Positions 12,001 to 15,000 of a stretch of 64,000 bases of DNA are shown here, in pieces. Position numbers: made by a program. The stretch's first letter is position 1. Each line of letters opens with the position of its first letter. Location: assembly GCF_055900595.2 (NCBI RefSeq), contig NZ_CM148325.1, one strand, 5' to 3'.

Positions 12001-15000
12001 AGAAGGCCGGCCGTGCAATGCAGCGGATTGTTGATTCTGCCTGGAAATTTAAGGCGAAGACTCTGCTGGCTGGTGTAACGATTAATAACTGGCAAAGCAA
12101 ATATGACCAGCTTCGTAAGGAAAGAGAGGCTTACGCTGCTGTCAGTGAGAAAATTGCCTTTCTTAACCTGGAAGATAATTCTGACTGGGAGAGTGTCAGG
12201 CAACAGTTTCTGGACAAAGTGGCATTGCTGGAAAAAGCGCAGGAAGAAAAGGAATATCAGGCAGAGCTTAAGCGTCAGATGCGTGAAGAAAAAGAGCGTC
12301 AGGATGAACTTGACCGGCGCCAGCGGGAAGCGGAAGAGGAAGAACGGCGTCTTGCTGAGCAGCAGAAACTGATTGAGGAGGCGCTGCGCGCAGCAGAAGG
12401 GGCTCACAGGGAGGAGTTAGAGAAACAACGCCTGGAGCTGGAACAGAAAATTCAGGAAGCGCATGCGCAGTATGAACGTGCTAAATCCATGGCTCAGCTT
12501 ACGAAACAGGGGCATGTTTATATCATTTCGAATATTGGTTCGTTTGGTGAGGATGTCTTTAAAATTGGCATGACCCGACGGCTGGAACCCATGGACAGGG
12601 TCAAAGAGTTAAGTGGTGCTTCTGTTCCGTTTGATTTTGATGTTCACGCCATGATTTCCTGTGATGATGCGCCCGCGCTGGAAAAAACACTTCATGACAG
12701 TCTGGAAAAATACCGCATCAACAGGATTAACCTGCGTAAAGAATTTTTCCGCGTGAAGCTTGAGAAAATCATTAATGAAGTGGAGCGTCACCACGGGCAG
12801 GTGGAATATGTGGCTGACCCGGCAGCACTGCAGTATCTGCAGAGTCTGGAGTGCGCGGAAAATGAAGCTGCCTGACAATCAGTGTTCTGATTTTATTCCG
12901 GCCGGATATAACAGAAGGGATATCTGCACATATCCTGCAGCATGGTTCACGGTATTCCGGTCATGTTAATGATTCTGTTTTTTTATTTCTGAATAAAATG
13001 ACACCCACGATATAACGTCGTGGGTGTCGGTGATGATTATTTTTTTGTTCACAGATTAAGGTGCGTTTATGGCGAAACTGATAAATGTATCGGCGTCCAC
13101 TGAGGAGAGAATGACGTCCGGGGAGAGGAGGGTGGCTTCACGACTGGAGAGCTTTCTGAATGATGAGTGCCTTGTCTGGTACGATATTCCGGTGGGACGG
13201 AAAAACCGGCATCCGGATTTTGTCATTATTGACCCGGAAAACGGACTGCTGTTTCTGGAGGTCAAGGACTGGACGGTTTCCACGCTGCGCCAGGCAAATC
13301 AGGAGCAGGTCACGCTGGAAACCGACGGTCTTCTGAAATCAGAAATAAATCCGCTGGTACAGGTTCGTCGTTATGCCTGTGATACGGTTAATGCCTTACC
13401 TGCAGACCCGTGCTTACGGCAGAATGACGGTCAGTATAAGGGACGGCTGAACCTGGCCTGGGCGTATGGTGTGGTGTTTACCCGCATTACCCGTCAGCAA
13501 CTGAAGACACTGGCAGGGAATGATGAGAATGCGGTGGAAAAGATTTTTCCTTCAGCACAGACAATCTGCCAGGATGAAATGACTGCGTCTGTGCTACCGG
13601 AAGTGTTCCGGCAAAAAATTGCCGGGATGTTTATCACGGGATTCAGAACCCGGGTGACACCCCGGATGAGAGATATTCTGCGCGCCCATCTGTTTCCTGA
13701 AGTGACCGTGAAACAGAACTCACAAATCAAAATCATGGATATCCAGCAGGAGATTCTGGCCAGAAATATTGGTGACGGGCATCGTGTCATTCATGGTGTG
13801 GCCGGTTCCGGAAAAACCATGATTCTTTTGTTCCGTTGCCTTTATCTGGCTGAAACCACACCCGGAAAGATTCTGGTGTTGTGCTACAACATTACCCTGG
13901 CCAGTTATCTGCGGGAATGCATTGAGGCCAGAGGGCTGGCGTCACGGGTTACGGTATCTCATTTTCACAGCTGGTGTGCCTCAATGGCAAAACGCCACGG
14001 TATTCAGGTGACGGCAGACAGAGAAGAATATCCTGAGAAATGCTTCAGTGCACTGGAAGAGGCCGTGAACAGCGGAAAAATCACCCAAACCGGATATGAT
14101 GCTGTACTGGTGGATGAAGGGCATGATTTTGACAGTCGCTGGCTGGCCCTGATTGCCCGTCTGTTTGATAACGCATCCCGTTCACTGCTCCTGATGTACG
14201 ATGATGCCCAGTCCATTTACCGGCGGGAGCGGGCCCTGAACTTTTCTCTGGCCAGTGTGGGGATTCAGGCACAGGGACGCACTTCTGTCCTGCCGGTCAA
14301 TTATCGTAATCCGAAACGCATTCTGCACTTTGCTTATGCATTCTCCCGCGAGTATTTTGAAAAACATCAGAACCGTGAAATACCACTTGTTCAGCCACAG
14401 GCAGGCGGTGAAGAGGGTACAGAGCCGGAAATCCTGCATTGTGCTTCTGAACGTGATGAAGCCAGACAGGTTGCAGACTGGCTGGAGAAGCGCCATGCCC
14501 TGTGTGGTCACTGGAGTGATATGGCTGTGCTGTGTCCGACAGAGCGTTCAGCGAAACAATTGCAGGACGTTATGACACAACGCGGGGTGCCTTTTGCCAC
14601 CTGTTTTGACAGGGAAGGCAAGAAGGCATACTCGCGACGTAAGGATGTGGTGCATTTACTGACATATCAGAGCAGCAAGGGGCTGGAGTTCCCGTATGTG
14701 GCGGTTATCAATGCGTCTTTCGTTCACTCTGGTGCAGCGGATGAGTCTGAAGTGATTCCGGTGCTTTATGTGGCGTTCACCCGGGCAACCCGCGAATTAC
14801 TGGTGACCTGTTACCGTGAAAACAGTATCAGCCGCCACCTTGAGGATTTTGCATAATACCAGACCATTTCTTTATTCCGGGCTTTCACCATACTGTTATT
14901 ATCAGGTTTATTTAATTCGCCATGAACCCGTTATTTAACGATATTCAGATGCGTCTTTTTTATCTGAACCACTCTCCGTACTCCTGGCACTGGAATGTCA

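Follow-up and report, generated by a model that had tools for sequence, protein, structure and literature searches.

We describe a gene of Escherichia coli whose product joins a NERD-type nuclease to a UvrD-like helicase in a single chain. The gene occupies positions 13069-14856 (+ strand) of a 64,000-nucleotide stretch of NCBI RefSeq assembly GCF_055900595.2 (contig NZ_CM148325.1), hereafter the window, which is an E. coli genomic island. By its sequence, the product is a full-length member of the NERD+UvrD family PDLC01087/C3a187, and it probably acts as a stand-alone nuclease-helicase defense effector against foreign DNA, be it phage or plasmid. Neither the domain types nor their architecture nor the logic of defense islands is new, and a database model for the family exists.

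Most telling is the match to the PADLOC model PDLC01087 ("C3a187, NERD+UvrD"), which aligns residues 1-594 of the protein with positions 1-556 of the 559 in the model (E = 2.5e-139). An exhaustive HMMER search over 1.84 billion representatives clustered at 50% identity returned 565 matching representatives (E ≤ 1e-30), most of them about 600 amino acids long and aligned end to end. Both results lie far outside what chance would give.

The gene is an ATG-started open reading frame (ORF) of 595 codons plus stop, as read from the ORF list and the translation, in agreement with the single 595-amino-acid protein proposed in the initial annotation of this DNA. RefSeq starts the orthologues at M15, which yields 581 amino acids, and often names the product "3'-5' exonuclease", a name for which we found no experimental basis. 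The ATG at 13069 appears better supported than the M15 start, because M1 and an "MAxxIP" N terminus are kept in 90% or more of the 65 diverse homologues that were aligned, the extension from M1 to M15 is in frame in all E. coli alleles examined, plasmid copy included, and a Shine-Dalgarno-like AAGGTG can be read from the sequence 5 nt upstream of the ATG (13058-13063, + strand).

Profile searches against Pfam recover both halves of the predicted fusion, a NERD domain at residues 17-108 (E = 5e-10) followed by UvrD-helicase (residues 233-315, E = 2.9e-7), AAA_19 (226-385), UvrD_C (407-511 and 522-583) and UvrD_C_2 (528-579). The NERD-type N terminus and the complete UvrD-like core that had been claimed from the sequence are thus present, as are the GSGKT and DEGHD motifs, which the translation places at residues 246-250 and 349-353. 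We divide the protein into an N-terminal nuclease module (residues 1-218, 13069-13722, with the NERD core at 13117-13392) and a compact helicase core of the superfamily 1A (SF1A) UvrD/PcrA/Rep type (residues 219-595, 13723-14853), the latter delimited with Pfam, a profile search of the PDB and Foldseek; these and the motifs below are all on the + strand.

Residue conservation was counted in an alignment of 65 family members with 27-89% identity. The nuclease module carries a metal-binding and catalytic PD...E-x-K signature, P49-D50...E64-V65-K66 (13213-13266), flanked by E19 (13123-13125) and Q98 (13360-13362), and these residues are kept in most or all homologues (D50 in 65/65, E64 in 62/65, K66 in 59/65, E19 and Q98 in 61/65 each). 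In the helicase, Walker A or motif I (G243-VAGSGKT-250, 13795-13818) has G243, G246, G248 and K249 in 65/65 and T250 in 64 of the 65, while Walker B or motif II (D349-E-G-H-D353, 14113-14127) has D349 and E350 in every one. T571 and R572 of motif VI (Y567-VAFTRA-573, 14767-14787) are invariant, and likewise Q381 of motif III, R413 of motif IV and G538 of motif V. Conservation of the nuclease signature together with all helicase motifs argues that both catalytic centers are under selection across the NERD+UvrD family.

Structure prediction leads to the same division. The full-length AlphaFold2 model (predicted local distance difference test, pLDDT, 91.4; predicted template modeling score 0.88) finds its best PDB matches in UvrD, PcrA and Rep (E ~5e-18 in Foldseek), with SLFN11 and Upf1 next in rank. 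A sequence profile search of the PDB gave PcrA/UvrD (4e-41), GajB (2e-18), RecB (2.5e-11) and SLFN11 (4e-6). The N-terminal module matched no solved structure by sequence, and here fold comparison alone was informative: its model (pLDDT 91.7) resembles restriction-endonuclease-like nucleases, many of them from defense systems, including LlaBIII, Can2/Card1, McrC, Shedu, NucC, Upx, HamA and Hna. With a restriction-endonuclease-like fold and a full catalytic signature, the N terminus is nuclease-like, as first suggested, and the motor belongs to the UvrD (SF1A) type. Since the helicase part is only ~375 amino acids long, far shorter than UvrD or PcrA, and its template modeling (TM) scores are ~0.5, its accessory subdomains must be reduced.

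The gene is accessory and mobile in E. coli. It is intact (≥80% coverage) in 614 of 5426 complete genomes, 15 plasmid copies are found among complete E. coli genomes, and homologues lie on plasmids of Citrobacter, Klebsiella, Vibrio (including Vibrio harveyi) and Nostoc. All 17 NCBIfam matches fall far below curated cut-offs, the best being PcrA with 66.8 bits against 911, and AddA and RecB score 21-31 bits against cut-offs of ~700. These scores, together with the distribution, led us to reject a housekeeping UvrD, Rep, PcrA, HelD or helicase IV, so that the prospect raised with the original prediction, a conserved core helicase, came out negative. In the window, the gene lies in a defense island, with PD-Lambda-1-like, Old and type I restriction-modification genes around it.

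Hundreds of complete E. coli genomes, O157:H7 strains among them, retain of the gene only its initial 790-797 nt, which correspond to the NERD part and abut the insertion sequence (IS) element IS66; these remnants are annotated "NERD domain-containing protein". The ratio of non-synonymous to synonymous substitution rates (dN/dS) between E. coli alleles is 0.16-0.27 in both domains, from which the intact gene is judged to be under purifying selection. Several alleles coexist, with protein divergence of up to 11%, and diversifying selection of the arms-race kind was not seen at these dN/dS values. A phage origin was also rejected, as 50,697 phage records held no full-length homologue and PHROGs gave a generic DNA-helicase match to the C-terminal part only.

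We compared the neighborhoods of the gene and its homologues at 85 loci, 83 outside E. coli and 2 within it, with up to 10 kb of flank each; PADLOC was run on the neighbors of a hand-picked sample of these loci. When 718 neighbor ORFs were clustered, no family recurred at more than 5 of the 83 loci outside E. coli, and hence no partner is conserved. Of the genes adjoining the helicase in the window, the YdcA-like gene (11073-11474) and the 101-residue hypothetical (14922-15227) were discarded as partners, being found in E. coli loci only, and so was the ImpA_N/VasL gene (15270-16643), which was found in E. coli loci and one other, L003, and is not family-wide.

Defense genes recur beside homologues in unrelated lineages. 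A Rhodoferax locus has type II and type IIG restriction-modification together with PDC-S02/S03. At metagenomic loci (L092-L095), a homologue with 32% identity stands between AbiEii and a type I restriction-modification operon, in which RhuM and a Shedu (SduA_C) gene are embedded between hsdS and hsdR. An N6 methylase adjoins the homologue on a Vibrio conjugative plasmid, and a toxin-antitoxin pair does so in Ralstonia.

We propose the following mode of action, modeled on UvrD/PcrA/Rep and on AddA/RecB. The helicase would load on single-stranded DNA, or at ends, gaps or forks, and translocate 3'->5' with ATP. The motor would then feed DNA to the attached nuclease, or position it, so that the nuclease cuts the DNA engaged by the motor. 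The protein would thereby be a counterpart, in one chain and with swapped domains, to AddA/RecB and to Gabija, a complex of two proteins. Going by Nhi, a nuclease-helicase discussed below, it probably attacks intermediates of phage replication or recombination; this might end in degradation of the invading DNA or, should the DNA of the host be cut as well, in abortive infection. A broader proposal, which we hold tentatively and with a little less than even confidence, is that the NERD+UvrD family is a real and widespread immune system of one protein, as yet without a name, which works by a mechanism other than those of Nhi and Hna: an SF1A 3'->5' motor would drive an N-terminal NERD nuclease (an "inverted AddA/RecB") and destroy invading DNA unaided. 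Type III CRISPR-Cas would now and then recruit the module as an accessory, or it would stand next to an OLD nuclease.

Several points weigh against a defense role. The anti-phage activity of the product is something we infer, and its target, its polarity and the coupling of nuclease to motor are drawn from family knowledge. The searchable literature yielded bioinformatic mentions of NERD-UvrD fusions and no experimental work on them. None of the PADLOC PD-* models, which we take to be systems from an E. coli fragment screen, matches the product, a weak piece of negative evidence. Several homologues sit among ordinary metabolic genes with no recognizable defense neighbor. Finally, inheritance of the gene appears to be stable in Bradyrhizobium and, with 112 records, on the megaplasmid of Ralstonia solanacearum, which would also fit a role in DNA repair or replicon maintenance.

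That role is the alternative that survives best, and we consider it unlikely: an accessory UvrD/AddA-like nuclease-helicase serving repair, recombination or maintenance of its own host or plasmid DNA. The closest characterized relatives by sequence and fold are indeed repair helicases (UvrD, PcrA, Rep and AddA/RecB), and besides the housekeeping surroundings of some homologues and the apparent stability on the Ralstonia megaplasmid, plasmid copies adjoin partition and recombinase genes. Against this stand the scores far below the curated equivalog cut-offs, the patchy distribution in E. coli with frequent truncation by IS elements, and the recurrence of restriction-modification, Old, Abi, Shedu and Qat genes alongside the homologues in unrelated lineages. 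NERD nucleases are also enriched in defense islands according to the literature. On balance, a stand-alone defense effector accounts better for these observations.

A second alternative would have the protein work in trans with the OLD-family nuclease encoded at 16785-18491, as a Gabija-like pair in which the UvrD-like part takes the role of GajB. The helicase part does resemble GajB: GajB profiles are its best-scoring match among validated defense systems (E = 3e-21, a partial match over residues 337-508), and GajB structures are matched by sequence, as given above. The Old-type gene lies 1.9 kb downstream in the window, and in Acidovorax sp. Leaf191 (L026) a full-length Old (11833-13563, E = 4e-186) follows the homologue after 30 bp on the same strand, so that occasional Gabija-like pairing is possible. 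However, just 2 of the 83 loci outside E. coli have an Old-like gene within 10 kb, and in E. coli strains MEW, H22 and AR216.2b other cargo replaces it. In the window itself, two unrelated genes separate helicase and Old, and the Old gene fits the PADLOC model for Old of the P2 type (E = 1.5e-78, profile positions 2-455 of 578 only) much better than it does any GajA model. Old of P2 works by itself, and the NERD-UvrD protein already has a nuclease of its own. We therefore regard such a pair as very improbable for the gene in the window.

The T5orf172 gene immediately upstream (11630-12875, + strand) offers another potential partner, and the initial annotation had left open whether the two act together. 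The genes share a strand and are separated by 193 bp, as stated there (the upstream frame ends at 12875), and 137 complete E. coli genomes have the two side by side. The neighbor matches PD-Lambda-1 models (E = 5.5e-89), with coverage limited to the C-terminal two thirds of these profiles. Comparative genomics answers the question in the negative. By tblastn, homologues of the T5orf172 gene were found at the two E. coli loci only and at none of the 83 others, and the 137 genomes with the pair compare with 614 that have an intact helicase gene; among the carriers without the neighbor are E. coli AR216.2b and the E. coli plasmid pE-93. The helicase gene also stays intact where its neighbor is broken, in H22, where the T5orf172 gene has an internal stop, and in the window. 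Here a run of eight A (11641-11648), as against seven in MEW and H22, brings a stop 7 codons after the ATG at 11630, and the remainder of the gene is open only from a GTG at 11709, within the first predicted membrane helix. The extra A could be a real inactivation, homopolymer slippage or a sequencing error.

Between the two genes, a terminator scan and RNA folding revealed a strong hairpin followed by a T-run (13000-13046), with an 11-bp stem containing 7 G-C pairs at 13000-13028 and seven T at 13040-13046. It folds at -27 kcal/mol (z = -4.9), and 0 of 200 shuffles fold as well. The element is a probable terminator between the T5orf172 and NERD-UvrD genes and, with an A-rich stretch upstream as well as the T7 downstream, looks like a bidirectional one. 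A joint system with the T5orf172 gene was thus rejected, and we give it very little credence.

It is equally hard to credit that the protein is an accessory of another machine, whether an ancillary nuclease-helicase of type III CRISPR-Cas or a component of a type VI secretion cluster. The first version stems from the history of the family, which was first catalogued as cluster 187 (C3a187) in the survey by Shah et al. (2019) of genes adjoining type III CRISPR-cas cassettes (PMC6546367), while a later large-scale survey lists UvrD and NERD among putative CRISPR auxiliary genes (PMC10910872). The C3a187 family shares both membership and two-domain architecture with our protein, but its label rests on neighborhood statistics near type III cas, whereas the gene described here has no CRISPR-Cas context and the family is solitary in nearly all loci examined. 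The 10 main ORFs that were run through PADLOC, from 3986 to 21658, gave no match to a Cas model, and no neighbor of any kind is conserved in the 83 loci.

The type VI version draws on two loci, E. coli MEW (L001) and that of a 60%-identical homologue (L003, GCA_025215155.1), in which the NERD-UvrD gene lies between tssE and ImpA_N/VasL of a full type VI secretion cluster. Given this shared placement, the insertion point at the type VI secretion cluster is common to separate lineages. The type VI context is however confined to these 2 lineages, the upstream secretion genes are replaced in the window by a two-partner-secretion/contact-dependent inhibition (CDI) locus, and markers of secretion or of effectors are absent from the protein. 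In the window, the ImpA_N/VasL (TssA-like) gene, itself intact, is a remnant of the type VI secretion cluster, the rest of which is missing.

The site occupied by the gene is a variable defense hotspot, since other strains carry different cargo at the same place: an "anti-phage protein" in E. coli MEW, and in E. coli H22 QatABCD together with a nucleotide-binding-domain protein/SLATT pair that looks like a cyclic-oligonucleotide-based anti-phage signaling system (CBASS). Upstream in the window, the two-partner-secretion/CDI locus (3986-10505) consists of a TpsB-like transporter, which has no NCBIfam match above cut-off and was assigned by synteny with H22, a filamentous-haemagglutinin-repeat protein of 1341 amino acids and a small ORF after it. 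At the corresponding place H22 has a far longer gene, of 7.2 kb, so the haemagglutinin gene of the window probably represents a CdiA that has undergone deletion or rearrangement.

Further downstream, a gene resembling phosphoadenosine phosphosulfate (PAPS) reductase (19508-20542) gives weak BrxP/DndC-type matches. Other strains have a counterpart annotated DUF3440/PAPS reductase, with an IbrB-like gene after it; in the window this stretch is interrupted by an IS3 transposase (20840-21658), and 21803-22441 may, by its position, be the counterpart of the IbrB-like gene. The stretch may constitute a further candidate defense or modification module. A type I restriction-modification system (24877-30774) ends the defense island, before sucrose-utilization genes (fructokinase, porin and phosphotransferase system) that start at 31836. 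Its hsdR (1014 amino acids), hsdM (544) and hsdS (410) products all score below curated NCBIfam cut-offs, indicating a divergent variant.

If defense is shown, the catalogue of defense systems would gain a compact nuclease-helicase that consists of one gene and is native to E. coli, with the gene intact in ~11% of complete E. coli genomes and several hundred distinct clusters across Proteobacteria, Cyanobacteria and Bacillota. It would show that the nuclease-plus-motor solution to foreign DNA arose independently with an SF1A engine, beside the SF1B engine of Nhi, the SF2 engine of Hna and two-protein Gabija, and it would give functional meaning to a family so far labeled a CRISPR-associated candidate or misnamed "3'-5' exonuclease" in RefSeq. 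Were the protein a repair enzyme instead, the finding would be ordinary. Altogether, 13069-14856 is a plausible, good and easily testable E. coli-native candidate for a single-protein nuclease-helicase with an SF1A motor, and not a surprising one.

Among known systems, Nhi and Hna are validated single-protein anti-phage nuclease-helicases. Nhi is SERP2475 of S. epidermidis (Bari et al., 2022), Nhi-like proteins were described by Millman et al. (2022), and what defines both is an N-terminal nuclease with, after it, DUF2075, which is a Dda/Upf1-type SF1B helicase. In Nhi, nuclease and helicase activities are both required, replication intermediates of the phage are the proposed target, and activation goes through the phage single-stranded DNA-binding protein. 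The initial annotation had called our protein Nhi-like. This holds as an analogy of architecture: in one chain, an N-terminal nuclease of the PD-(D/E)xK superfamily precedes an SF1 helicase, the genes share a defense-island context, and both active sites are likely required. It does not hold as family membership, which we rejected: DUF2075 (PF09848) has no convincing match (E = 0.011, against 1e-7 to 1e-8 for UvrD-family domains in Pfam), the best matches are UvrD and PcrA, and the PADLOC Nhi model (PDLC02372; E = 5.1e-5, 20 bits) aligns only with residues 224-254 around the P-loop, with no stretch significant on its own. Beyond the P-loop, we detected no homology between the two. The Nhi helicase is of the DUF2075/SF1B kind (Dda/Upf1/Schlafen-like) with bipolar unwinding, and its nuclease resembles that of HsdR, whereas the protein from the window has a UvrD/PcrA-type SF1A motor and a nuclease of the NERD subtype.

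Hna and the Schlafen proteins show likeness in fold and architecture only, with 6-7% identity. Hna has an SF2 helicase at its N terminus and the nuclease at its C terminus, an order opposite to that of our SF1A protein; Schlafen-11 and -12 combine a different nuclease core with a DUF2075 helicase. Gabija offers a functional parallel, as a DNA-targeting defense built on a UvrD-like SF1A protein and a nuclease. Gabija, however, is two proteins in a large complex and uses an ATPase-Toprim nuclease, while the protein in the window has a PD-(D/E)xK nuclease in cis. Identity with GajB was rejected, as the adjacent genes are T5orf172 and the 101-residue hypothetical, with no GajA, and the protein carries its own nuclease.

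AddA and RecB carry a PD-(D/E)xK nuclease covalently attached to a UvrD-like SF1A motor, and the strand being translocated is cut by this nuclease. The NERD-UvrD protein likewise unites an SF1A motor and a PD-(D/E)xK nuclease in one chain, and AddA and RecB are among its sequence and fold matches. Identity with them was rejected on the N-terminal position of the nuclease and the lack of a conserved partner in the 83 loci: AddA and RecB have a C-terminal nuclease, AddB or RecC/RecD as partners and Chi recognition, whereas the protein described here puts its nuclease first, ahead of a much smaller core of ~375 amino acids, and stands without a partner.

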